Assembly (NCBI GenBank): GCA_026390695.1
Contig: JAPLFL010000101.1
Location: 3,674 to 67,673 of the forward strand
DNA length: 64,000 bases
Source of the DNA: Candidatus Kapaibacterium sp.
GTDB taxonomy: Bacteria > Bacteroidota > Ignavibacteria > Kapaibacteriales > UBA2268
Direction: 5' to 3'
The translations under genes and the position numbers were made by a program. The notes beneath the pieces are model-generated. The model was not told the origin of the DNA, ran no database searches, and saw only the letters and a program-made list of their open reading frames with translations. Of the stretch, positions 1-42,642 are shown in pieces; position 1 is the stretch's first letter, and each line of letters opens with the position of its first letter.

Positions 1-1110
1 ATTATAGCCGATGAATTGACTGAAATATCAAATAAATTCTCCGATCCTCGCCGTACTGAAATAGTTCGCGATGCTCAGGACTTTACTATTGAAGATATGA
101 TTGCCGACGAAGATGTGATTGTCACTATTACTCATCGTGGATTTATTAAACGCACACCTGTTTCCAATTACCGCCGTCAGAATAAGGGCGGACGTGGTGC
201 AAGCGGTGCCGGTACTCATGATGATGATTTCATCGAGCATGTATTTCAGGCTTCCACTCACCACTTCCTGTTGTTCTTTACTGACAGGGGCCGAGTTTTC
301 AGAGTAAAAGTTTATGATTTGCCCGAAGGAAGTAAAAATGCCAAGGGTCGATCACTTGCCAATGTGATTCAGAAAGATGCAGATGAAACCGTAACTGCAT
401 ATCTGCCGGTACGTGAATTTGATGAGACTCAGTTTATTATTATGGGTACACGAAACGGAACTATAAAGAAGACTGCTTTATCGGAATATCAGAATGTTCG
501 GGCTAATGGAATAATTGCTATTAATCTTGTCGAAGGTGATAGATTGATTGAATCTAAAATCACTGATGGCACCTGCGATATTATTCTTGGAACATCAAAA
601 GGTATTGCTTGCCGTTTCCGAGAATCAGATGTTCGTGCAGTCGGCCGGGCTTCAATCGGTGTGCGCGGTATATCGCTCGAAGGTGATGACAAAGTAATGT
701 CGATGGTTGTGATCAAACGTTCTGATTCTCAGATTCTTGTCGTTGGTGAAAATGGATACGGAAAACGTACAAAATATGAAGATTTCCGTTTAACCAAACG
801 TGGAGCTAAGGGCGTTATTTCAATGAATGTATCGGAAAAGACCGGTAAGGTTGTTGGAATGAAATCTGTGGTTGATACCGAAGATTTAGTTGTTATGACT
901 ACAAATGGCATAACGATTCGTCAATCTATAAGAGATATTCGCACAATTGGCCGCAATACTCAGGGAGTGAAACTTATCCGCCTCGATGCCGGTGACACGA
1001 TTGCCGATATTACACTTGTAACGCGAGAGGAAGATGAAGTGGAAGAATCAAACGGAACGGATAATGCACCTGAAATGTTTGAAGAAAGTGGACAGACAAC
1101 TCTTTTATAA
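1..1110 (+). CDS. gyrA: DNA gyrase subunit A, C-terminal (beta-pinwheel) domain. The 5' end of the gene lies before the window; the frame is open from base 1.
   Basis: The translation contains a GyrA-box-like QNKGGRG and repeated blade motifs (VxTxxGxxKR, GxGVKLIRL) typical of the GyrA/ParC CTD, followed by an acidic tail. The ORF is in frame with position 1. Confidence 0.8.
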   Translation: MIADELTEISNKFSDPRRTEIVRDAQDFTIEDMIADEDVIVTITHRGFIKRTPVSNYRRQNKGGRGASGAGTHDDDFIEHVFQASTHHFLLFFTDRGRVFRVKVYDLPEGSKNAKGRSLANVIQKDADETVTAYLPVREFDETQFIIMGTRNGTIKKTALSEYQNVRANGIIAINLVEGDRLIESKITDGTCDIILGTSKGIACRFRESDVRAVGRASIGVRGISLEGDDKVMSMVVIKRSDSQILVVGENGYGKRTKYEDFRLTKRGAKGVISMNVSEKTGKVVGMKSVVDTEDLVVMTTNGITIRQSIRDIRTIGRNTQGVKLIRLDAGDTIADITLVTREEDEVEESNGTDNAPEMFEESGQTTLL

Positions 1111-1175: not shown

Positions 1176-1444
1176 TGAGGCCGTCTCAAAACCCTCATTT
1201 CTGTCATTCCTGCGAATGAGACTGTGTGAAAACACGAAATATTCACGTATCTGTCATTCCCGCGAATGCGGGAATCCCCTTCCATGGCGCAATTGGGGAT
1301 TCCTGCATTCGCAGGAATGACAAGAAAAGGTAGTTTTCACACAGTCTCGAATGCAGGAATCCCCTAAAGTGGCACTGGAAGGAGATTCCTGCATTCGCAG
1401 GAATGACATTGTTGTTAAATATGAGGCTTTTGAGACAGCCTCAT
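1176..1444. repeat. MITE-like palindromic element cluster with a GTCATTCC(T/C)GCGAATGC(A/G)GGAATCCCC core in inverted pairs. It is bounded by ~22-bp inverted termini, TGAGGC(C/T)GTCTCAAAA(C/G)CCTCA.
   Basis: Direct reading shows arms at 1253-1280 and 1296-1322 that are reverse complements. The termini at 1176-1197 and 1423-1444 are inverted copies. The same family recurs at 3327, 3683, 13930, 20921 and 63424. Confidence 0.8.
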
Positions 1445-1452
1445 TTTTTTTT
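1423..1452 (+). terminator. Rho-independent terminator after gyrA, formed by the right terminus of the repeat element.
   Basis: The stem TGAGGCT/AGCCTCA has an 8-nt loop and is followed by a T9 run at 1445-1453. Confidence 0.6.
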
Positions 1453-1463
1453 GGTTATAACTC

Positions 1464-1718
1464 TTAATAATCCCAATATTCTTTACTCAATCTAATAATC
1501 TCATCCAACTCAGCTTTTGTATCGGTTTCACCAAATACAAATGAAGAACAAATATAGTCCCAGTCACTTGAAGTAAGATTATAGAGTTTCTTGGCTATTA
1601 ATATTTCCAGTTCTGCACGGATTAAGTCCAAATCACGCTCGGAATCTACTTCTATATTTAATTCCTCCCCACAAGTCAGAAGTTTCTTCTGATTTGGAGC
1701 AAGAGAAATTACAAGCAT
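1464..1718 (-). CDS. Hypothetical small acidic protein (84 aa). Its start overlaps the rsmI stop (ATGA).
   Basis: ORF-track only; it is translationally coupled to the upstream rsmI and has no recognisable motif. Confidence 0.35.
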   Translation of the reverse strand: MLVISLAPNQKKLLTCGEELNIEVDSERDLDLIRAELEILIAKKLYNLTSSDWDYICSSFVFGETDTKAELDEIIRLSKEYWDY

Positions 1719-2392
1719 TACAGATTTTTGACTTTTTCAAGTACTACAACAAATTCACCTTTTATTTGCTGTCGTTTTTTTAGGGTTATCAGGCATTCTC
1801 CTATGGTTCCTCGGATAAATTCTTCATGAAGTTTGGTCAGTTCCCGTGCTATACAGATTTTCCGATCGGATCCGGCTGCTGCACATAGTTCTTCTAATAA
1901 TTTCATTATGCGGTGAACTGATTCAAGCATAATTACGGTGTGGTCTTGTTTGATGCAATTTCTGATAAAAGTCTGACGACCTTTTTTTTGAGGTGGAAAA
2001 CCGAGAAAGATGAACGAATCAATTGCAAGTCCGCTCGCTATTAATGCAGTCAGTATTGATGAGGCTCCCGGAATAGGAATTACTCTAATATCACTCTCAA
2101 TGGCTTTATGCACTAATCTGTATCCGGGATCGGAAATACAGGGTGTGCCTGCATCGGAAATCAAGACAACGCTTTTTCCTGCTTTTAATTCTGTGATTAT
2201 TGAATCAGAGCGACTGTCCTCATTATAATCGTGGTAAGAAATAAGTTTTTTCCCGATTATATTCAGAGCCTTTAATAATATCCCGCTCGACCGTGTATCT
2301 TCGCAGGCTATCAAATCGACATTTTTCAAAATATGATAAGCCCTGAAACTGATGTCGCTTAGATTACCAATGGGAGTTGCCACCAAATACAA
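1718..2392 (-). CDS. rsmI: 16S rRNA (cytidine1402-2'-O)-methyltransferase RsmI (tetrapyrrole-methylase fold).
   Basis: LVATPIGNLSDIS...IACEDTR...SDAGTPCISDPG motifs are characteristic of RsmI, and the length (224 aa) fits. Confidence 0.88.
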   Translation of the reverse strand: MYLVATPIGNLSDISFRAYHILKNVDLIACEDTRSSGILLKALNIIGKKLISYHDYNEDSRSDSIITELKAGKSVVLISDAGTPCISDPGYRLVHKAIESDIRVIPIPGASSILTALIASGLAIDSFIFLGFPPQKKGRQTFIRNCIKQDHTVIMLESVHRIMKLLEELCAAAGSDRKICIARELTKLHEEFIRGTIGECLITLKKRQQIKGEFVVVLEKVKNL

Positions 2393-2519
2393 AGCATTGA
2401 TGATATTTTCTTTAATCTCGATATTAATTCCTTAAGATTTTGTAATTTTGTAAATGTAAGTTTAATCAGTGATAACGAGATAAACTCAGGAATATTTTAT
2501 TAAAATTATGAAAAAATAA

Positions 2520-3263
2520 ATGCCAGTAAAAGTAATTACAATAGATTTTTGGAATACCTTGTTCGATTCGAGTGCCGGAACCGAACGGAACACATATCGC
2601 CGCCAGTCATTGGTTAAGGAAATAAAGAAACTGAATGCCGAATTAAGTGAAATTGAGTTTAATAGTGCAATGGAGGCATCATGGGCTTTTTTTAATGATA
2701 ATTGGCTCAATCACAGCCGTACACCTGAGCCAAGCGAAACGGTGAAATTTTTTATGGACTTTCTACATTTAGATTTCACAGCCGAGCAATTTGATAAAGT
2801 TGTTTGGAATTTTGCAGAATCTGTGCTGGTTTTTCCACCTAAATTAATTGATGGAGTTCCTCAAGCACTCGAAAGTTTATCTTCAAAATTTAAATTGGGA
2901 TTGATTTCGGATACTGGATTTTCTCCCGGAACTGTATTGCGTGAGCTGATGAAAAGAACTAATATTTATCAATATTTTTCAGCATTTAGTTTTTCTGATG
3001 AAACCAAAGTGTCCAAACCGCATCCGAAAGCCTATCTTACAGTTTTAAATGAGTTGGAATGCAATCCTGAAGATGCTGTCCATATTGGCGACATTGCTCA
3101 GACTGATATTAAAGGAGCAAAAAATTTATCAATGAGAGCTATTCGGTTCATTGGCGACCAAACTTCAATGGTTCTAAAAAATACTGACATACAAATAGAA
3201 GCTGACTGGGAAGCAGAATCCTGGCATGAAATAGTAAAAATTATTAACGAAATTACTAATTAA
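2520..3263 (+). CDS. HAD-superfamily hydrolase.
   Basis: Motif I-like ITIDFWNTLF; motif III lysine (SKPHPK); motif IV HIGDxxxxD; length 247 aa. Confidence 0.65.
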   Translation: MPVKVITIDFWNTLFDSSAGTERNTYRRQSLVKEIKKLNAELSEIEFNSAMEASWAFFNDNWLNHSRTPEPSETVKFFMDFLHLDFTAEQFDKVVWNFAESVLVFPPKLIDGVPQALESLSSKFKLGLISDTGFSPGTVLRELMKRTNIYQYFSAFSFSDETKVSKPHPKAYLTVLNELECNPEDAVHIGDIAQTDIKGAKNLSMRAIRFIGDQTSMVLKNTDIQIEADWEAESWHEIVKIINEITN

Positions 3264-27410: not shown

Positions 27411-27655
27411 ATCCCCATTGAATCCCATTTAGGAAAGGGGGAAACTTGGAAAATCCCCCTTAGTCCCCCTTTTTCAAAGGGGGAAACTTGGAAAAACTAC
27501 CTTAATCCCCCTTTTATAAAGGGGGAAACTTGGAAAATCCCTCTTAATCCCCATTTAGGAAAGGGGGAAACTTGGAAAATCCCCCTTAATCCCCCTTTTT
27601 CAAAGGGGGAAACTTGGAAAATCTCTCTTGATTCCCATTTAGGAAAGGGGGATTG
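27411..27655. repeat. About 6 tandem 41-42-bp units, each encoding a CCCCC-UUUUCAAA-GGGGG hairpin plus AACTTGGAAAA. The array is at the 3' end of the Nramp-related gene.
   Basis: Read directly; GC-clamp palindromes stand out in the AT-rich context. Confidence 0.85.
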
Positions 27656-28956
27656 AATAGGAGAATTGCTGTTAATCCTATTAGAATTGTTATTGTAGTC
27701 CAACCTACAATGTTGTTAAATGGCTTATTTATGTATTTGCCCATTATTTCTTTGTCGTTGACAAGTAGTATCATGCAGACTAATACTACGGGTAGGAGCA
27801 CTCCGTTTAGCACTTGTGACCAAATACTGATTAAAATTAATGGGGCATTGGGGATAAGGATTATCAGTGCTGAAATAATTAGTATTGCGGTATATAAAAA
27901 GTAGAATTGTGGTGCTTCGTTCATCTTTTTATCAATTCCGGCTTCAAATCCAAATGCTTCGCAGACGTAGAAAGCTGTTGCAAGTGGTAGAATAGTGGCG
28001 GAAAAGATGGATGCGACTAATAATCCGAATGCAAATACATATTTGGCGAAGGCTCCGGCAAGTGGTTCTAATGCAATTGCTGCGTCACTTGCTTCATTTA
28101 TGACAACATGGTGTGGAAATAGTGTTGATCCGCATGCAACTATAATGAAAAATGCCACAACTACTGTTGCAATGCATCCAACAACTATATCCATTATTGT
28201 ATATTTGTAATCTTCTATCTTTAATTTCTTTTCAATGACCGCAGATTGCATGTAAAATTGCATCCAAGGTGCAATAGTTGTGCCAATTATGCCTATAACG
28301 ATGGTAATATATGAAAAACTCATTTCAACTTTGGGATGAATGATGGCAGTTCCTATTTCTCCCCAGTCAGGTTTGCCCATAATTGCTGATATTACGTAAG
28401 AAAGGAGGAAAACTGAGAAAATAAGGAATATTCTTTCTGCTATCCGGTATGTACCTTTGACTACAAGGAACCAAACTGCTGCTGCAACGATGGGTACAGC
28501 TATGTATTTGCTTACTCCGAATACTTGCATAGCGCCCGCAACTCCAGCAAATTCCGTAGTTGTGTTTCCAATGTCTGCAATTAGTAATCCAACGAATATA
28601 AAGAAGGTTACTTTGACTCCTGAATTTTCCCGAATGAGGTCAGCTAATCCTTTCCCGGTTACAATTCCCATTCGGGCGTTCATTTCTTGTATTACAAGGA
28701 GTGCAATGAATGATGGAATTAGTGTCCAGAGTAGCGCATAGCCGTATTTAGCACCTGCAACGGAGTAGGTTGTGATTCCGCCGGCGTCATTATCGACTGA
28801 ACCGGTAATAATACCTGGTCCGAGGATTGCCAGAAAGAAAATAATGTTTCGCCAGATTGATTTTCTTCTTAATTTAAACATATAAATCCTCTCATTTCTT
28901 ATTTTAATTGTGTAGGATTGGCGATAATGGGAAATCCCTCCAAGCCCCTTTTTCAA
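27586..28956 (-). CDS. Nramp/SLC11-family transporter with a non-canonical metal site (Nramp-related, possibly an Mg2+/hard-cation transporter).
   Basis: 11-12 TM helices with the Nramp consensus region GPGIITGSVDNDAGG (TM1) and GTTIAPWMQF (TM6). The canonical DPGN Asn is replaced by Gly and the canonical MPH Met by Ala. Confidence 0.75.
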   Translation of the reverse strand: MKKGLGGISHYRQSYTIKIRNERIYMFKLRRKSIWRNIIFFLAILGPGIITGSVDNDAGGITTYSVAGAKYGYALLWTLIPSFIALLVIQEMNARMGIVTGKGLADLIRENSGVKVTFFIFVGLLIADIGNTTTEFAGVAGAMQVFGVSKYIAVPIVAAAVWFLVVKGTYRIAERIFLIFSVFLLSYVISAIMGKPDWGEIGTAIIHPKVEMSFSYITIVIGIIGTTIAPWMQFYMQSAVIEKKLKIEDYKYTIMDIVVGCIATVVVAFFIIVACGSTLFPHHVVINEASDAAIALEPLAGAFAKYVFAFGLLVASIFSATILPLATAFYVCEAFGFEAGIDKKMNEAPQFYFLYTAILIISALIILIPNAPLILISIWSQVLNGVLLPVVLVCMILLVNDKEIMGKYINKPFNNIVGWTTITILIGLTAILLFNPPFLNGNQERFSKFPPLKKGD

Positions 28957-29152
28957 AGGGGGAGATTATATTGGATATATTATAGCTACAATTAGTTAAG
29001 AAGGAATATTTCTTCATCCCCCCTTTGAAAAAGGGGGTTATGGGGAATTTCCAATTCTTCATTCTTTTGGAGAAATAGGTTAGGGTGATTTTCCAATTCT
29101 TCATTCTTTTGGAGAAATAGGTTATGGGGATTTTCCAATTCTTCATTCTACT
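28925..29152. repeat. Two CCCCCTTT-loop-AAAGGGGG hairpins followed by 2.5 tandem 42-bp units (TTCCAATTCTTCATTCTTTTGGAGAAATAGGTTATGGGGATT), between the MgtE_N/CBS gene and the Nramp-related gene.
   Basis: Direct reading. Confidence 0.8.
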
Positions 29153-29157
29153 ACTTT

Positions 29158-30408
29158 TTATGCTTTACGGCGGCGATTTTTCATTAAATTAAATACAACA
29201 TCGTCGATAATAACTATTCCAACCATTTTTTCTTCGGCGTCAACGACTGGCACAGCAAGTAGATTGTATTTAGATATAATTTCTCCTAATAAATCTATTT
29301 TGTCAGTGTCGTAAACTTTGGTTACATTGCGGTTCATTATAGATTTAAGTTGTGACATAGGATGAGAAATTATCAAATCTCTTAGTGAAACTGTTGCAAT
29401 TAGATTTTCATTTCTGTTTAATATATATAAATAGTAGATAGTATCGGATTCGGGGCGTAAAAGTCGTAGTTCATTGATTGTTTGTTCGATTGTCATTTCT
29501 TCCTCGAAGGAAATAAAGTCCGTAGCCATAAGCGAACCGACTGAATTATCGGGATATTCCATTAATTCACGAACTTCGGTGCTTGCTTGAGATTCCATCT
29601 CGCTTAAAATTTCTTCTGCTTTGTCTTCTTCCATTTCGTCAAGGATGTCAGCAACTTCGTCAGCGGGCATTTTTTCAAGTAAATCTGCAGCTTTAGATAT
29701 GTGAAGAGATTCAATTAAGTCCACCTGAGCGTCAGTTTCCATTTCCTCAAGCACATCAGCGGCTTTTTCTTCGTCCAGAGATGAGAAAAATGCAACTTGT
29801 GAGTTTCTGTCTAAGTCTTCTATAATATCGGCGATGTCCGAAGGATGCAGAGTTGATATTTTTTCCTGCGATTTGGATAAAATAAGTCCTCCGCGCTGGA
29901 AATCAATGGTAGCAACGTCGTCCCATAGGATTAATTTGCTGGATAACGAGACTCCAACGGGTTTAAGCAGCATTTTCATAGTCTTAGCAACAGATAAACG
30001 TCGCAATAATCCTTCTGTCCCGACGTCAACAGCAACTACAAACATGCCATCGGATAGATTAGCGAGCCTAAGATCATTCACACGCTCTAATTTTTTGCCG
30101 TCCATATCGACAATTTGCTTATCCATGACGTGTTTAGCAAGAAAATAGGTGTGTTCAGGGAGAATAATCATCTCAGCAATATGTTTGCAGACGACAGCAT
30201 AGTGCCCGTTAGTTTTAGTAACGGTAAATTCGTTAAAATCAATAGGAATAGCTCGTCTTCCGAGTTTTACCTTCAAGGCAATAACTTTAGGACGAATGAA
30301 AGAAAGATCGACAACGACATCTTGTAATTTGCCAATGACTTCTCCATTATCCGAAAGAACGCTCGATCCGAGAATTCTACTTAAATACAAAGTTGTAAAA
30401 ACAGCCAT
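29158..30408 (-). CDS. Soluble PRC-barrel / MgtE-N-domain / tandem-CBS protein (the cytoplasmic Mg2+-sensing module of MgtE), with no transmembrane domain.
   Basis: Acidic MgtE_N helical region (DLLEKMPADEVADILDEMEEDKAEEIL), CBS pair (LMATDFISF..., IMNRNVTKV...), and the ORF ends without hydrophobic helices. The start was chosen at the MAVF Met, which has a GGAGG 7 nt upstream. Confidence 0.7.
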   Translation of the reverse strand: MAVFTTLYLSRILGSSVLSDNGEVIGKLQDVVVDLSFIRPKVIALKVKLGRRAIPIDFNEFTVTKTNGHYAVVCKHIAEMIILPEHTYFLAKHVMDKQIVDMDGKKLERVNDLRLANLSDGMFVVAVDVGTEGLLRRLSVAKTMKMLLKPVGVSLSSKLILWDDVATIDFQRGGLILSKSQEKISTLHPSDIADIIEDLDRNSQVAFFSSLDEEKAADVLEEMETDAQVDLIESLHISKAADLLEKMPADEVADILDEMEEDKAEEILSEMESQASTEVRELMEYPDNSVGSLMATDFISFEEEMTIEQTINELRLLRPESDTIYYLYILNRNENLIATVSLRDLIISHPMSQLKSIMNRNVTKVYDTDKIDLLGEIISKYNLLAVPVVDAEEKMVGIVIIDDVVFNLMKNRRRKA

Positions 30409-30465
30409 AATATTGCCCTCCATTTTACGAACAGGGCAATAACAGCGAGGTTTGTGCCCTACTCG
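30409..30465 (-). promoter_or_regulatory. RBS-sequestering hairpin with an alternative upstream pairing partner in the 5' leader of the MgtE_N/CBS gene.
   Basis: In the mRNA, UAUUGCCCU (30441-30433) pairs either with AGGGCAAUA overlapping the SD (30419-30411) or with the upstream AGGGCA (~30459-30454). Confidence 0.45.
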
Positions 30466-34265: not shown

Positions 34266-36395
34266 ATGGAAAACGATAAAGAAAACGAAATAAGCCAAAA
34301 CAATCAGCCACAAGCTGAAACGCCGCGAAAACTCTGGAAATTCTGGCTGATGCTGGTTTTTATAAATATCATTTTTCTTGCTGTAATCGTAAAACTATTT
34401 ATTGTTCAGGTTATTAATTCAGATCAATATAAAGAAGCTGCGAAAAAGCAGCATGAGTCAAAGGTTACGCTCACTGCAAAACGTGGTAATATTTACGATA
34501 GAAATGGCAATTTATTAGCATCCTCATTGCAGAAAATCACCGTAGTGGTCGATCCGAGCATACTCAACGATGATAAAATGCGAAAGACTTTAGATAAAAT
34601 CTGTACATTCCTTTCTAACGAAACGGGTGTACCAAAGGAAAAGTATATAGATAAAATCCAAAATTCGGATAAATCCTATCTCATTTTAGCCCGTGGCATT
34701 GATCCATGGAAATCTTCAAAGTTAAAAGAAATTGATGATCGTTGTGTTTTTTTAATAAGCGAGCCAAAAAGGAACTATCCTTTTGCTAATGCTGTGTCTC
34801 AGTTAATCGGATTTACAGATAATGATAATGTTGGGAAAATCGGACTGGAAAAGAGCTGGGACAGTGTTTTGCAAGGTAAGGACGGTTTTATTATAATGAG
34901 TCGTGATGCAATCGGAAAACTTCATTTTGCCGCCGATTTACCCTATCAACCTGCTATGGATGGCAATTCCTTATACCTCACTATTGACATCAAATATCAA
35001 AGAGTGTTGGAATATGAGCTTCAGCATGGAGTTTTAAAAACTAATTCAAGTTCCGGTGCAGCTATTGCCCTTGATCCATCAACAGGTGAAATTCTGGCAA
35101 TGGCTTCTTATCCCGATTTTGATCCCAATAATATAAATTCCGAAGCAATTCCAAATATGAAGAACCGCGCGATTACAGATGTGTATGAACCCGGCTCTAC
35201 ATTTAAAGGTATAACAGCAGCAGCGGCTCTCGAAGAGAATCTCTTTTCGCCTGATGATATTTTGGACGGGCATAACGGGTCTATTGATTATGGACAATAC
35301 ACGATTACCGATGTACATCCGATCGGAAGAGTTACTTTTCGTGAGGCATTGGAGCAATCCAGCAATGTCATTTTTTCTTCCGTTGGTTATACCATACCGG
35401 ATAACGATTTCTATAAATATATCCGTAACTTCGGATTTGGTCTTAATCTCGGCATTGATTTACCCGGAGAATCTGCAGGCAGACTGCCAAAACCAGATAA
35501 CTTTACAGCAGCCATAAAAAGATTTATGGGCTTCGGGTATGGAATTATGGCAACACCTCTTCAAGTCTTATGCGCTTACGGTGCAATAGCCAACCGAGGT
35601 GATCTGATGCGACCTTATGTGGTAAAGAAAGCCGTGAAATCCAATGGGCAGTTACTCTTTGAAACCCGGGCAGAAAAAATCAGAAAAGTAATAACTGAAA
35701 AAACAGCGAAAACTCTGACTGATATGTTAAGTGGAGTTGTGAGTCGAGGAACTGGAAAATCTGCAATATTAGATAAAATATCAGTCGCTGGTAAAACCGG
35801 AACAACTAAATTAGTAGTAAACGGAGCTTATTCGGATAACTATATAGCTACTTTTGTTGGCTTCTATCCCGCAGAAAAACCTGAAATAACATTAATCGTT
35901 GTACTGGACAAACCAATCGGAGCTTATTACGCTGGTTCGACTGCAGCGCCAATATTTAGAAATATTTGTGCAAGATTTTTAAATCTTAAGCAACTTGATA
36001 ATCAAGTTAAAAATGACTCTCAGTCGGGAGATTCAACGAATTTACAAAGAAATCTGCGTTTTATTCCTGAAATTAACGGATTGGATTATACAAAAGCAGA
36101 AAACTTATTGAAACAATATGGAATTAATCTTGAGTCAGTCGATAAATCTTCCATAATTTTCGACAGAAAAATAAAATCAGGTGAGAAACTCGAATCAGGC
36201 TCATTTATAAGAGTCGAAACTGATACTAATTCTATCAAAAAACCAGACGTAACAGGGCTGTCACTGCGCCATGCCATTAGACTATTACAAAATTCAGGTT
36301 ATAAAGTTAAGGTAAACGGATATGGATTAGTTAAACGTCAGGAATGGTCAGATAAAGCAAGTGCTGGCAAGGAATGTACGATTTACTGCAACTGA
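34266..36395 (+). CDS. ftsI: Penicillin-binding protein / peptidoglycan D,D-transpeptidase (FtsI/PBP2-class) with C-terminal PASTA domains.
   Basis: N-terminal TM; STFK, SSN and KTGT motifs; about two PASTA-like repeats at the C-terminus. Confidence 0.85.
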   Translation: MENDKENEISQNNQPQAETPRKLWKFWLMLVFINIIFLAVIVKLFIVQVINSDQYKEAAKKQHESKVTLTAKRGNIYDRNGNLLASSLQKITVVVDPSILNDDKMRKTLDKICTFLSNETGVPKEKYIDKIQNSDKSYLILARGIDPWKSSKLKEIDDRCVFLISEPKRNYPFANAVSQLIGFTDNDNVGKIGLEKSWDSVLQGKDGFIIMSRDAIGKLHFAADLPYQPAMDGNSLYLTIDIKYQRVLEYELQHGVLKTNSSSGAAIALDPSTGEILAMASYPDFDPNNINSEAIPNMKNRAITDVYEPGSTFKGITAAAALEENLFSPDDILDGHNGSIDYGQYTITDVHPIGRVTFREALEQSSNVIFSSVGYTIPDNDFYKYIRNFGFGLNLGIDLPGESAGRLPKPDNFTAAIKRFMGFGYGIMATPLQVLCAYGAIANRGDLMRPYVVKKAVKSNGQLLFETRAEKIRKVITEKTAKTLTDMLSGVVSRGTGKSAILDKISVAGKTGTTKLVVNGAYSDNYIATFVGFYPAEKPEITLIVVLDKPIGAYYAGSTAAPIFRNICARFLNLKQLDNQVKNDSQSGDSTNLQRNLRFIPEINGLDYTKAENLLKQYGINLESVDKSSIIFDRKIKSGEKLESGSFIRVETDTNSIKKPDVTGLSLRHAIRLLQNSGYKVKVNGYGLVKRQEWSDKASAGKECTIYCN

Positions 36396-38861: not shown

Positions 38862-40364
38862 ATGAAATATATTATATCTGTGGCTCTGATTGCCGCTTTC
38901 CTTAATTTTTCTTTTGCAAAGGATGCTTTGGACATGAAACAGATTACATATCGCCCGGCTCGTGCAGCAGGCACTTTTTACCCGGAAAATCCCGATAGTT
39001 TACGTTCAATGCTTAAAACACTGGAAGATAATTCTAAGCCAGCCAGACTTAATTATAATATTCAAGCATTGATAGTACCTCATGCTGGTTATATTTATTC
39101 TGGAACAGTTGCTGCCAGAGCATATAAAGAATTATACGGCAGAAATTATGATGCAGTAATTATTGTCGGTCCCAGCCATTTCGCTTCATTTAGTGGATCA
39201 TCAGTCTTCAACGGCGATGCTTATATCACACCCTTAGGAAATGCAATGGTTGATACTGCACTTGCGAATGATATTTCAAGCAACAAAGGTATTCAATTGT
39301 CATTGATAGGCCACAACTGGCGCGATTCAAGTGCGGAACATTCTGTTGAAGTTCAGATACCATTTATTCAAACTTATCTGCCAAATGTAAAAATTATTCC
39401 GATAGTAATGGGAACACAGGACAGTAAAGCGATTTCCGATTTAACAAAAGCAATTGTTACATCCGTTAAAAACTCAAAAAAGAATATTCTCTTAGTTGCA
39501 TCAAGTGACCTGTCCCACTATAAAAGTCGCACTGGAGCACGTCAAATAGATATTCCACTTGCTGAAACAATTTCGAGATATGATTATTTCAAATTTATGT
39601 TAAACTGCTTTTCTGACAGATATCAGGCATGTGGCTATGGTCCGATTTCTGTCGTTATGATGGCAGCAGAACAGCTTGGTGCTAATTATAACAGAGTTCT
39701 CAATTATGCAACTTCAGCGGATTCACCTCTTATCAAAACACCAAATGACCGTGTTGTAGGTTATGTCTCCTCTGCTTTGATCAACGCGACGGGTGCAGAT
39801 TCTACAAAAACTTTTCCAGCACTTCCCACAATATCCCAAGAAAATCGTGATAGATTATTTGAGGTGGCAAAAAAAGCTATTTTCTCAAGTGCAAAAAACG
39901 ATTCAAGCCAGCAATCACCGATGATTCCACGTGAACTGGCATTAGATTATGCCTCATTCGTCACTATCAAAAAGAATGGGCAATTACGTGGCTGTATGGG
40001 GCACATCTTTTCTACTCAAAGCATAGTTCAGGAAATAGAAGAAACTGCCCGTATGGCTGCAAAAAGTGATCCCAGATTCCCTGCACTGAAAGCCTCGGAA
40101 TTAGATTCTATAAAAATTGAAATCAGTATTCTTTCACGTTTCAAAAGAGTGATGGATTATCATGAAATCGAACCGGGCAAAGATGGAGTTTATATTATGT
40201 CCGACGGCCGTAGTGGACTGTTTTTACCACAAGTAGCAACTGAGCAGGGTTGGAATAGAAAAGCACTGTTGGAAAATCTCGGTCTTAAAGCAGGATTATC
40301 GACCGATTCGTATTTAGCTCCTAATGCCGAATTATATATATTCAGAACATTGGTACTGGAGTGA
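38862..40364 (+). CDS. Fusion of Memo-like (AmmeMemoRadiSam system protein B) and AMMECR1 (protein A) domains, with an N-terminal Sec-type signal peptide.
   Basis: Memo motifs VPHAGYIYSG, GPSHF, HSVEVQIPF, SSDLSHY, ACGYGP; AMMECR1 motif LRGCMGH plus the surrounding core; N-terminus MKYIISVALIAAFLNFSFA. Confidence 0.75.
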   Translation: MKYIISVALIAAFLNFSFAKDALDMKQITYRPARAAGTFYPENPDSLRSMLKTLEDNSKPARLNYNIQALIVPHAGYIYSGTVAARAYKELYGRNYDAVIIVGPSHFASFSGSSVFNGDAYITPLGNAMVDTALANDISSNKGIQLSLIGHNWRDSSAEHSVEVQIPFIQTYLPNVKIIPIVMGTQDSKAISDLTKAIVTSVKNSKKNILLVASSDLSHYKSRTGARQIDIPLAETISRYDYFKFMLNCFSDRYQACGYGPISVVMMAAEQLGANYNRVLNYATSADSPLIKTPNDRVVGYVSSALINATGADSTKTFPALPTISQENRDRLFEVAKKAIFSSAKNDSSQQSPMIPRELALDYASFVTIKKNGQLRGCMGHIFSTQSIVQEIEETARMAAKSDPRFPALKASELDSIKIEISILSRFKRVMDYHEIEPGKDGVYIMSDGRSGLFLPQVATEQGWNRKALLENLGLKAGLSTDSYLAPNAELYIFRTLVLE

Positions 40365-40454
40365 AAATATATTTTTGAAGTCTATTAATTTATTTACAAT
40401 ACATATAAATTATCATCGTCATCATCTCCGCAATTGACATATTTATTAATGTTG

Positions 40455-40620
40455 CCGAAATTCATGCAAAAACATGAATGCGGGGGAACCACTACCGGGG
40501 CGAATTCTCATAGTTCAGAGAAAGGATACTTCCAAATCCGAGCCCGTCAGCTAACCTCGTAGGCTAATGGAAGAGCATTGGACAGACAATTACCACTGCC
40601 CTTGCTGCTGTGGTTTTTTT
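40455..40620 (+). ncRNA. Candidate ydaO-yuaA (c-di-AMP) riboswitch with an intrinsic terminator, in the 5' leader of the KimA-like gene.
   Basis: Ordered conserved-looking blocks GGGGGAACC, GGGGCGAAUUC and CCCGUCAGCUAACCUCGUAGGC, with nested pairings CUUCCA/UGGAAG and AGCC/GGCU. The terminator is AACCAC-loop-GUGGUU plus U7 at 40592-40620, and AACCAC also occurs at 40486, allowing anti-terminator competition. Family assignment is from memory of the ydaO consensus. Confidence 0.5.
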
Positions 40621-40659
40621 ATGCCTCAAATGCCCTTCTCCTTAAATTAAGGAGGATTT

Positions 40660-42642
40660 ATGAGTTTCTACAATTCAAATGGTGATGTATCATTCATCAA
40701 GAAATTTAAACAAGTTTTATTCGGATCTCCAAGAAATGTTAATGATTCGGGGTTATTCCACAAAATAGCACTGATCCCGCTTTTAGCTTGGGTCGGTCTT
40801 GGATCCGATGGTTTATCATCTTCAGCTTATGGCCCTGAAGAAATATTCAGGAGTATTCAAGGTCATACTTATTTAGCGTTATTTCTCATTTTAGCTGTTG
40901 CCTTTACAATTTTCATCATTTCTTATGCCTATACCAGGATAATTGAGCATTTCCCTCATGGTGGTGGTGGTTATATTGTTGCCACGCACATGTTGGGAGA
41001 AAAAGCAGGTGTAGTCTCTGGCTCGGCTCTTATTGTGGATTATATTTTAACGATTACTGTTTCGATAACATCTTGCGTGGATGCCCTATTTAGTAATTTG
41101 CCAATCCATTATCAGAGTTATAAAGTGATGACTTCCACGGTTCTAATTGTTGTACTTATAGTATTAAATATCAGGGGAGTTAAAGAGTCAATCACAGTTT
41201 TAACCCCAATATTTATTGTTTTTGTATTAACACATATTTTGCTTTTGGGCTATGGAATATTCAGTCATCTTGGCGAAATACAGCCCGTAATTTCCAATGC
41301 AAATCAGAACCTGACAAAAGACCTGAGTAGTATAGGCTTTTTTGGAATATTTTTTATGGTAATCAGAGCGTATTCTCTTGGTGGTGGCACCTATACTGGC
41401 ATTGAAGCAGTATCCAATGGTTTGCAAATTATGCGTGAACCAAAAGTAAAAACCGGCAAGAGAACAATGCTTTATATGGCTTCATCTCTTGCAGTAGCTG
41501 CTGCTGGATTATTACTTTGCTATTTATTGGTAGAAGTCAAGTTAGTACCCGGAAAAACTCTTAATACAGTTTTAGCAGAAACTTTATTTGGAAATTGGAG
41601 ATATGGAAATATAATTACAATAATTACAATTTTTTCCGAAGGTGCTTTACTATTTGTTGCTGCTCAAACAGGATTTATAGATGCACCGCGCGTAATGGCC
41701 AATATGGCTGTAGATTCATGGTTACCGCACAGATTTGCAGCATTTTCAGAAAGGTTAACAATGAGAAATGGAATCGTTCTCATAGGATTATCTGCTCTTC
41801 TGATTCTTTGGTACACGAATGGTTCAATCGGCGCATTAGTTGTTATGTATTCAATTAATGTCTTTCTTACTTTTACACTTTCAGAGTTTGGAATGTCTCG
41901 ATTTTATTTCAGAAGAAGAAAAACTGATAATCAATGGAAAAAACATATTGTAATACATTTGATTGGATTAGTATTATGTGCTACGATTTTGCTCATTACC
42001 GTTTCTGAAAAATTTGCTGAAGGAGGCTGGATAACACTACTTATAACTGGTATTCTTATTATTGTAAGTTATAGAATCAAGAAACATTATTTAAGGGTAA
42101 GAGGTGCTATGGTGCAGCTGGAAGACAATATAACCGAAATATATGCAAGCAGCCAGTCTAAAGTTTCAGCAATAATAAATAGAAAAGAACAGACTGTAAT
42201 TCAGCTTGTCGGATCGTATAATGGTTTTGGCATCCACACTCTTTTATCGGTCATCAAGACTTTCCCCGAACTTTATAAAAATATAGTATTCGTCTCTGTA
42301 GCAGTAATTGATCAGGGAATGTTCAAGGGTGAAAATTCAATTGAAGGTTTGAAAGAATCAGTTATTGATTCCTTGAAAAGTTATGTGAATTTGGCCGTGA
42401 AGCTCGGCTTTAATGCTGAATATTATATGGCTGTCGGAACTGAAGTTAATGAAACTGCTGTTGAGTTAATTGATAGTATTAAAAAAGAATATCCTAATTC
42501 AACCGTATTTAGCGGGCGACTTGCCTTTCAAAAGGAAAAATTCTATCATAGATTGTTACATAACGAAACTGCTTATGCTGTTCAAAGAAAACTCCAATTC
42601 AATGGAATTACTAACGTGATTTTACCAATAAGGGTGAATTGA
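40660..42642 (+). CDS. kimA: APC-superfamily K+ importer of the KimA (YdaO) type, with a C-terminal cytoplasmic domain.
   Basis: About 12 TM helices in an APC fold plus a ~200-aa soluble tail; GGAGG RBS; sits behind a ydaO-type leader. Confidence 0.6.
   Translation: MSFYNSNGDVSFIKKFKQVLFGSPRNVNDSGLFHKIALIPLLAWVGLGSDGLSSSAYGPEEIFRSIQGHTYLALFLILAVAFTIFIISYAYTRIIEHFPHGGGGYIVATHMLGEKAGVVSGSALIVDYILTITVSITSCVDALFSNLPIHYQSYKVMTSTVLIVVLIVLNIRGVKESITVLTPIFIVFVLTHILLLGYGIFSHLGEIQPVISNANQNLTKDLSSIGFFGIFFMVIRAYSLGGGTYTGIEAVSNGLQIMREPKVKTGKRTMLYMASSLAVAAAGLLLCYLLVEVKLVPGKTLNTVLAETLFGNWRYGNIITIITIFSEGALLFVAAQTGFIDAPRVMANMAVDSWLPHRFAAFSERLTMRNGIVLIGLSALLILWYTNGSIGALVVMYSINVFLTFTLSEFGMSRFYFRRRKTDNQWKKHIVIHLIGLVLCATILLITVSEKFAEGGWITLLITGILIIVSYRIKKHYLRVRGAMVQLEDNITEIYASSQSKVSAIINRKEQTVIQLVGSYNGFGIHTLLSVIKTFPELYKNIVFVSVAVIDQGMFKGENSIEGLKESVIDSLKSYVNLAVKLGFNAEYYMAVGTEVNETAVELIDSIKKEYPNSTVFSGRLAFQKEKFYHRLLHNETAYAVQRKLQFNGITNVILPIRVN

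Follow-up and report, generated by a model that had tools for sequence, protein, structure and literature searches.

The question raised by this locus is whether a gene annotated as an amino acid transporter of the APC family in a Kapabacteria genome is in fact a potassium importer that is held in check by cyclic di-adenosine monophosphate (c-di-AMP). The gene lies in a 64-kb stretch of contig JAPLFL010000101.1 of Candidatus Kapaibacterium sp. (hereafter the window, meaning the whole stretch analyzed), where it occupies positions 40660 to 42642 on the forward strand, encodes a protein of 660 amino acids (aa), and is preceded by an intergenic spacer of 295 nt (40365 to 40659). An earlier reading of the same DNA, made without database searches, had proposed that this spacer carries a ydaO-type riboswitch controlling a KimA-like K+ importer. 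All 4227 Rfam families were compared with both strands of the window using cmscan and the curated thresholds, and the sole match was RF00379, the c-di-AMP riboswitch (ydaO/yuaA), at 40443 to 40580 on the forward strand. With 91.6 bits (E = 3.2e-20), the match exceeded the gathering score of 38; it spanned model positions 1 to 134 of 134, and was therefore not truncated. The leader belongs to the known c-di-AMP (ydaO) class of riboswitches, of which it is a canonical member with a high score, and on this point the original prediction was borne out. The 200-nt spacer that it described corresponds to the distance from helix P1 to the start codon, whereas the intergenic spacer itself is longer. 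Its assignment of the genome to the Fibrobacteres-Chlorobi-Bacteroidetes (FCB) group agrees with the NCBI record of an identical protein from a metagenome-assembled genome of "Candidatus Kapabacteria bacterium," a class of Bacteroidota within that group; sorting domains of the type IX secretion system were found in six window proteins.

The c-di-AMP aptamer and its expression platform

The three sequence blocks that had been recognized as conserved cores of the motif, GGGGGAACC at 40482, GGGGCGAATTC at 40497, and CCCGTCAGCTAACCTCGTAGGC at 40543, each occur once in the 64 kb and in the expected order, and the core nucleotides of the class (GGGGGAaCC, GGGGYGAAU, and CCCGuCAGCUAACC) were all found in the window aptamer. 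Mapping the RF00379 helices onto the forward strand placed P1 at 40454-56/40562-64, P2 at 40460-66/40473-79, P3 at 40480-85/40555-60, P5 at 40498-500/40543-45, P6 at 40506-09/40518-21, and P7 at 40524-27/40536-39, with a 2-bp helix listed between P3 and P5. We gathered 20 RF00379 matches, among which the score of the window aptamer was one of the highest, and aligned the window with 17 other matches. The window aptamer keeps each invariant column of this 18-sequence alignment, and its G+C content is 46%, compared with 35% for the window.

The helices of the aptamer covary in the alignment. Standard pairs occupied 86.8% of cells, compared with 32 to 50% in controls in which the partner columns were slid by 1 to 3 positions; this control somewhat favors the structure, which had been derived from the sequence of the window, but the margin was nonetheless large. 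Changes on both sides were seen in 25 of the 36 pairs, and the observed values were reached by none of 500 shuffles. P3 and P5 were paired in 100% of cases, while the 2-bp helix and the outer P1 pair were weak. A pseudoknot between a loop and the 3′ tail is a known feature of this class. In the window, its 5′ strand CUUCCA in the P7 loop (40529 to 40534) is complementary to its 3′ strand UGGAAG in the tail (40568 to 40573), both on the forward strand, and over the 18 sequences this helix was 88.5% paired, with both sides changed in three of its six pairs, as exemplified by CUCUUC:GAGGAG in a Gemmatimonadetes leader (L062; loci are designated by L numbers throughout). The pseudo-twofold fold that had been read from nested complementary segments is thus a multi-helix fold that covaries together with its pseudoknot.

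Downstream of the aptamer, we identified an intrinsic terminator at 40592 to 40620 on the forward strand (stem 40592 to 40614). Its 5′ strand ACCAC (40592 to 40596) pairs with GUGGU (40610 to 40614), and two inner G-C pairs follow across a U·U mismatch (ACCAC-U-GC/GC-U-GUGGU). The hairpin has a folding energy of −7.8 kcal/mol and runs into seven U residues (U7) at 40614 to 40620. The earlier reading had the hairpin and the U7 right but gave the 5′ strand as AACCAC; the segment is UACCAC (40591 to 40596), and because the base before the 5′ strand is U rather than A, the stem comprises 5 + 2 bp and not 6 bp. Counted from the aptamer end, the U7 of the window is at +33 nt. GC-rich hairpins followed by U-runs were found at +33 to +39 in the leaders L097, L091, L092, L044, L017, L048, L015, L029, and L094, and nearer to the aptamer end, at +23/+24, in L070 and L080. 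In L045, the terminator is a perfect form of the same stem (ACCACUG/CAGUGGU). We judge the window terminator to be real because the offset of its U7 matches that of the stronger terminators of related leaders. In the Bacillus thuringiensis kdp leader, bound c-di-AMP promotes intrinsic termination, and the members of the class that have been studied experimentally are transcriptional OFF switches (PMC6488665). Given this precedent and a terminator at the offset seen in its relatives, the window leader would, by analogy, likewise act as a ligand-induced transcription OFF switch.

A second hairpin lies downstream of the terminator. In the minimum free energy (MFE) fold of the leader, UUCUCCUU pairs with AAGGAGGA at 40636 to 40656 on the forward strand, forming an 8-bp stem that sequesters the Shine-Dalgarno sequence AAGGAGG (SD; 40649 to 40655). 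It is therefore conceivable that the aptamer acts mainly on translation through this hairpin, the upstream hairpin and U7 serving as a pause site or a weak terminator. The weak terminator stem of the window would suit such a role, and comparable anti-SD:SD hairpins were seen by eye in L097 and L092 and less clearly in L091, although L045, which has the same aptamer and terminator type, has none. Elsewhere, the class is clearly translational: in L062, L066, and L077 the SD is formed by the pseudoknot 3′ strand itself, the start codon follows 5 to 8 nt on, and there is no terminator, so in these leaders the aptamer is used at the level of translation. In the window, however, no convincing conserved pairing was found to connect the anti-SD segment with either the aptamer or its tail, and complementarities such as that of GGAAGAG with CUUCUCC are not the same in L097 as in the window. 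The U7, moreover, occupies a position that is conserved with clear terminators, and we consider it unlikely that control in the window is mainly translational. The pairing of the GGAAGAG tail with the anti-SD had been tried as an aptamer-SD link and was rejected, both for this difference in L097 and as low-information purine/pyrimidine matching. Separately, an RF00379 match of 83 bits at positions 945 to 1075 (reverse strand) of L095 precedes a Kup-type K+ transporter gene (GDIGTSPLY motif) and has no U-run terminator, so that its control is presumably translational.

The 660-aa transporter and its orthologues

We next consider the protein that the leader would control. When it was compared with all PDB chains using phmmer, the only sequence match at E ≤ 0.001 was B. 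subtilis KimA (6S3K, 8B70, and 8B71; E = 4.3e-57, 197 bits), over aa 16 to 489, the approximate extent of the transmembrane core in the KimA alignment. The K+ ligands of KimA are Asp36, Tyr43, Thr230, and Tyr377 (PMC10284832). These align to D50, Y57, T246, and Y397 of the 660-aa protein, and all four are invariant in the 37 orthologues over which residue conservation was judged. Tyr118 and Asn237 of KimA have been implicated in the c-di-AMP-induced lock, and their equivalents, Y128 and N253, were likewise invariant.

Structure prediction gave a concordant picture. The top three Foldseek matches of the full-length AlphaFold2 (AF2) model were the KimA structures 8b70, 8b71, and 6s3k (E = 2e-24 to 3e-21), with an alignment of 633 columns, followed by cation-chloride cotransporters at approximately 1e-11 and amino acid transporters of the APC superfamily at 1e-8 to 1e-6. 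Beyond the core, a cytosolic USP/PPAT-like domain was assigned by fold match to about aa 495 to 660 (about 42142 to 42639, forward strand). An AF2 model of the last 176 residues (predicted local distance difference test [pLDDT], 78) adopts an alpha/beta nucleotide-binding fold with beta-alpha-beta topology. Its best Foldseek match was again KimA (8b70, E = 5.8e-4), and then came USP proteins, including KdpD-USP with c-di-AMP (7ji4), and PPAT, consistent with the description of the KimA cytosolic domain as PPAT-like. The APC core with a cytoplasmic tail that the earlier reading had taken as the KimA architecture was thus recovered by both sequence and fold. Together, these comparisons support the assignment of the 660-aa protein as a KimA-type putative K+/H+ symporter of the KUP/APC superfamily, rather than an amino acid permease. 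All the conditions that the earlier reading had set for its own refutation, namely an insignificant RF00379 score, a fold lacking covariation, and a grouping with amino acid permeases, were thus examined, and every outcome favored it.

It could nevertheless be that the riboswitch is real but that the substrate of the protein is not K+ and is, for instance, an amino acid or an osmolyte. The public annotation reads "amino acid transporter/APC family permease," the Pfam assignments are limited to AA_permease_2 (81 bits) and AA_permease, and no specific NCBIfam model was matched, the weak matches including ethanolamine and amino acid permeases besides kup (aa 425 to 554). Identity to KimA is approximately 23% overall (660 aa versus 607 aa), and amino acid transporter genes are also associated with c-di-AMP riboswitches (PMC7266159). 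Set against this are the ranking by fold, in which amino acid transporters come after both KimA and the cation-chloride cotransporters, the invariance of all four K+-coordinating residues, and the failure of any amino acid APC transporter in the PDB to match by sequence at E ≤ 0.001, when KimA did so at 4e-57. KimA itself long carried an amino acid permease annotation. A non-K+ substrate therefore seems improbable, and from the KimA-like site we infer that K+ is the cargo.

Orthologues of 655 to 683 aa with 61 to 69% identity were found in Ignavibacteria, Bacteroidota, Spirochaetota, Planctomycetota, and Desulfuromonadales, and more distant ones (47 to 58%) in Gemmatimonadota, Acidobacteriota, Elusimicrobiota, and Methanomicrobiales; members of the clade are annotated merely as "APC family permease." We scanned 60 orthologue loci for RF00379 and found the riboswitch directly upstream of the gene at 12 of them, in at least seven phylum-level groups. 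The riboswitch-bearing loci belong to Gemmatimonadota, Desulfobacterota, Acidobacteriota, Elusimicrobiota, Polyangiaceae, a metagenome-assembled genome (MAG) of Pseudomonadota, an unclassified bacterial MAG, and Ignavibacteria, where the protein of the locus designated both L083 and L097 is 68% identical to that of the window.

Several loci showed further features. In a Bacteroidota MAG (L087:1-1048, forward strand), a riboswitch-less orthologue directly follows trkH and trkA, which independently hints at a K+ context for this family. At L091:753-889 (reverse strand), we found a leader that hardly differs from that of the Ignavibacteria KimA-like gene, with an RF00379 match of 85 bits and the same terminator. 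There it precedes, toward the contig end, a gene for a signal-peptide protein that matches Pfam BBP2 (OmpL-like beta-barrel porin; E = 4e-22), which suggests that an outer membrane porin belongs to the Ignavibacteria c-di-AMP regulon. In a Gemmatimonadota MAG, a c-di-GMP-I riboswitch (RF01051, 52.5 bits) is located immediately downstream of the KimA-like orthologue (L064:3280-3402, forward strand). The orthologues of two Methanomicrobiales MAGs (L054 and L055) are 58% identical, match at 1201 to 3147, and have a tRNA gene upstream (967 to 1042); these archaeal copies are compatible with either inter-domain transfer or mis-binning. Finally, some Desulfuromonadales-type MAGs carry two paralogues of the transporter. 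In the pair L028/L029, both of which were scanned, the riboswitch is found in L029 alone, and in the pair L005/L010, the scan of L005 gave no RF00379 match.

The switching segment and the proposed scheme

How might ligand binding be passed on to the terminator? The original prediction held that GUGGUU, the terminator 3′ strand, is paired with an AACCAC (40487 to 40492) in the aptamer core when no ligand is bound, which blocks termination. The motif ACCACU is indeed present twice in the leader, at 40488 and 40592, so that both copies are complementary to GUGGU (40610 to 40614), and the upstream copy sits in a region that would be locked by the bound ligand. The sole AACCAC of the leader, however, falls within the conserved core block at 40482, and the pairing would amount to 6 bp, half of them A-U, formed over approximately 120 nt. 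It also has no counterpart in the relatives: L045 has the ACCACUG/CAGUGGU terminator, but its aptamer reads GGGGGACCCGG and lacks AACCAC, and L097 offers no complement. RNAfold did not select the pairing in any prediction. We regard this switch as quite improbable, and that part of the prediction was not supported.

A better candidate for the anti-terminator is, in our view, a hairpin at 40572 to 40609 on the forward strand (AGAGCA..GG.CAG/CUGCC..UGCU.CU), which shares the final 2 nt of the pseudoknot 3′ strand and also overlaps the terminator 5′ strand. In RNAfold predictions, it reached −9.0 to −10.1 kcal/mol, compared with −7.8 to −8.9 kcal/mol for the terminator, and in L097, L048, and L029 the segment that follows the pseudoknot can pair in a similar way with the 5′ half of the terminator. 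A further candidate, in which the P1 3′ strand plus UGG pairs with CCA-CU-GCC, was rejected as not conserved in L097. Directly 3′ of the end of the Rfam model, and outside it, lies the pentamer GACAG (40581 to 40585). Behind the pseudoknot tail, it is conserved in L097, L091, L045, L015, and L029 as in the window, and L044 has GUCAG; the pentamer may belong to the switching sequence.

These elements can be arranged into a scheme in which a c-di-AMP riboswitch with a terminator represses a KimA-like K+/H+ symporter, and we consider the scheme as a whole very probable. When c-di-AMP is abundant, two ligand molecules would lock the pseudo-twofold aptamer, including the CUUCCA/UGGAAG pseudoknot, so that the tail and the nucleotides that follow it could not pair with the downstream segment. 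The ACCAC/GUGGU hairpin with its U7 would then form, and RNA polymerase would terminate ahead of the gene. When c-di-AMP declines, as would be expected under K+ limitation or at high external osmolarity, the freed tail region would pair with the terminator 5′ strand, and with that strand occupied the polymerase would read through and the symporter would be made. If the C-terminal nucleotide-binding-fold domain bound c-di-AMP as in B. subtilis KimA, control would be exerted at two levels.

Several observations weigh against this scheme. The terminator stem is weak, at −7.8 kcal/mol and with its U·U mismatch, and a consensus scanner did not list it, being limited to loops of 8 nt. When the whole leader was folded with RNAfold, the MFE structure contained neither the aptamer nor the terminator; the riboswitch is pseudoknotted and ligand dependent, so such a failure is expected and the fold is uninformative. 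The proposed anti-terminator is just 1 to 2 kcal/mol more stable than the terminator, and its pairings are conserved in sequence rather than clearly covarying; a metagenome pattern scan yielded seven loci, too few close relatives for true covariation in the expression platform. The riboswitch is absent from 48 of the 60 orthologue loci, and of the five other FCB loci, four (L082, L085, L087, and L089/L090) gave no match in the RF00379 scan. As for the protein, the full-length AF2 model is of moderate confidence (pLDDT, 69), and Arg337 of KimA aligns to His357, with an invariant Arg358 one position away. The homology of the tail to KimA is drawn from its fold, because a profile search with the tail against PDB sequences gave no KimA match at E ≤ 1. 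The residues His579 to Ser582 of the KimA c-di-AMP pocket align tentatively to H634, N635, E636, and T637 (HNET/HNQS) in a nonsignificant HMMER segment scoring −0.2 bits. With a tail sequence not detectably related and a pocket alignment of this kind, we treat direct binding of c-di-AMP by the protein as a hypothesis: the modeled tail may bind it. Lastly, the window has 45 open reading frames of 100 aa or more, and none of them encodes a DisA_N cyclase or a c-di-AMP phosphodiesterase.

That the aptamer is a decayed, nonfunctional remnant or a chance match, as the noncanonical first P1 pair, one such pair in the 2-bp helix, and the absence of the element from most FCB orthologue loci might suggest, is hardly credible in view of its E value and rank among the 20 matches, the retention of every invariant alignment column, its G+C content above that of the background, and the intact terminator and SD.

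That this lineage runs a c-di-AMP-based K+ homeostasis is a reasonable expectation, but no cyclase was found in the 64 kb. Signaling by c-di-AMP is documented in another species of Bacteroidota, Porphyromonas gingivalis (PMC9259658), and within the literature library that was searched, no paper mentions c-di-AMP or diadenylate cyclase together with Ignavibacteria.

Neighboring features and comparison with known systems

Upstream of the aptamer, at 40432 to 40439 on the forward strand (approximately 14 nt before P1), the window shares an identical AATTGACA box with the Ignavibacteria leaders L097 and L091; this box may represent a promoter element specific to the lineage. A sigma-70 promoter scan listed no promoter at 40432 to 40439. 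The TTGACA within the box (40434 to 40439) was rejected as a sigma-70 −35 box, since the implied start would fall inside the aptamer and the box is too near P1, and its reading as a Bacteroidetes-type −7 element is possible but unsupported. The upstream neighbor of the transporter gene (38862 to 40364, forward strand) encodes a single 500-aa protein in which Memo (AmmeMemoRadiSam system protein B) is fused to AMMECR1 (system protein A). Farther upstream, at 34266 to 36395 on the forward strand, is the gene for a 709-aa class B penicillin-binding protein with a C-terminal PASTA domain, the best NCBIfam match of which was SpoVD (454 bits, below the cutoff), which is unusual for a Gram-negative FCB genome. 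On the reverse strand (27586 to 30423), the gene for an Nramp transporter (27586 to 28956) adjoins one for a 421-aa protein (29158 to 30423) with PRC-barrel, MgtE_N, and CBS domains and without the MgtE channel domain; to judge from its domains, the latter may serve as a soluble sensor or regulator for divalent cations.

The window element is neither a new mechanism nor a new RNA class, and any pipeline that runs Rfam would detect it. What is gained is largely routine annotation, a known regulatory pair being seen in a modestly wider range of lineages. A gene labeled as an APC family permease or amino acid transporter acquires a functional annotation as a putative c-di-AMP-repressed K+ importer, and this annotation extends to a large group of orthologues that is highly conserved and occurs in many environmental phyla. 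The locus also provides indirect evidence that Kapabacteria and Ignavibacteria govern their potassium and osmotic balance by c-di-AMP. We know of no earlier discussion of the riboswitch-KimA pair in the Kapabacteria lineage or in the subclade of 655- to 683-aa proteins. The phyla quoted in PMC6488665 for c-di-AMP riboswitches linked to K+ transporters are Firmicutes, Actinobacteria, Cyanobacteria, Proteobacteria, Verrucomicrobia, as well as Fusobacteria. More tentatively, and with slightly less than even confidence, we propose that the 655- to 683-aa clade comprises distinct, mis-annotated KimA-like K+ importers under dual c-di-AMP control (riboswitch and USP-like tail). The recurrent linkage of the clade to the riboswitch would then indicate that K+ homeostasis governed by c-di-AMP operates in Kapabacteria/Ignavibacteria and in several other Gram-negative phyla outside that quoted list, and the Kapabacteria/Ignavibacteria platform would be two-tiered, with a terminator followed by an SD-sequestering hairpin.

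The closest known counterpart of the window leader is that of B. subtilis ydaO (kimA). The RNA family is RF00379 in both, matched by the window over the full model, the downstream gene encodes a KimA-type K+ importer (putative in the window), and the aptamer is followed by an intrinsic terminator, which implies a ligand-induced OFF switch. The host, however, is a Gram-negative Kapabacteria MAG (Bacteroidota, FCB group) rather than a Firmicute, and the predicted terminator of the window is much weaker and has a predicted SD-sequestering hairpin added after it. The B. thuringiensis kdpFABC riboswitch also combines a c-di-AMP aptamer and an intrinsic terminator ahead of a K+ uptake system, and it has been established experimentally as a transcriptional OFF switch that is relieved as c-di-AMP drops under K+ limitation (PMC6488665). 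Its target is the Kdp ATPase operon, whereas that of the window would be a KimA-like symporter, and its terminator lies 143 bp from the start codon, compared with approximately 40 nt in the window. At the protein level, B. subtilis KimA (6S3K, 8B70, and 8B71; KUP family) shares with the window protein the LeuT/APC-fold core, the conserved Asp/Tyr/Thr/Tyr K+ ligands, the equivalents of Tyr118 and Asn237, and a C-terminal alpha/beta (PPAT/USP-like) cytosolic domain. The two differ in length (607 versus 660 aa), in the sequence of the tail, and at Arg337, which is not aligned to an Arg, and the window protein belongs to a separate, tightly conserved clade of 655 to 683 aa with 61 to 69% identity across phyla. 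The leaders from Gemmatimonadetes (L062), Acidobacteria (L066), and Polyangiaceae (L077), finally, share both the aptamer class and the downstream protein family with the window but differ in their output: there the pseudoknot 3′ strand doubles as the SD and no terminator is present, whereas in the window a terminator comes after the pseudoknot strand.

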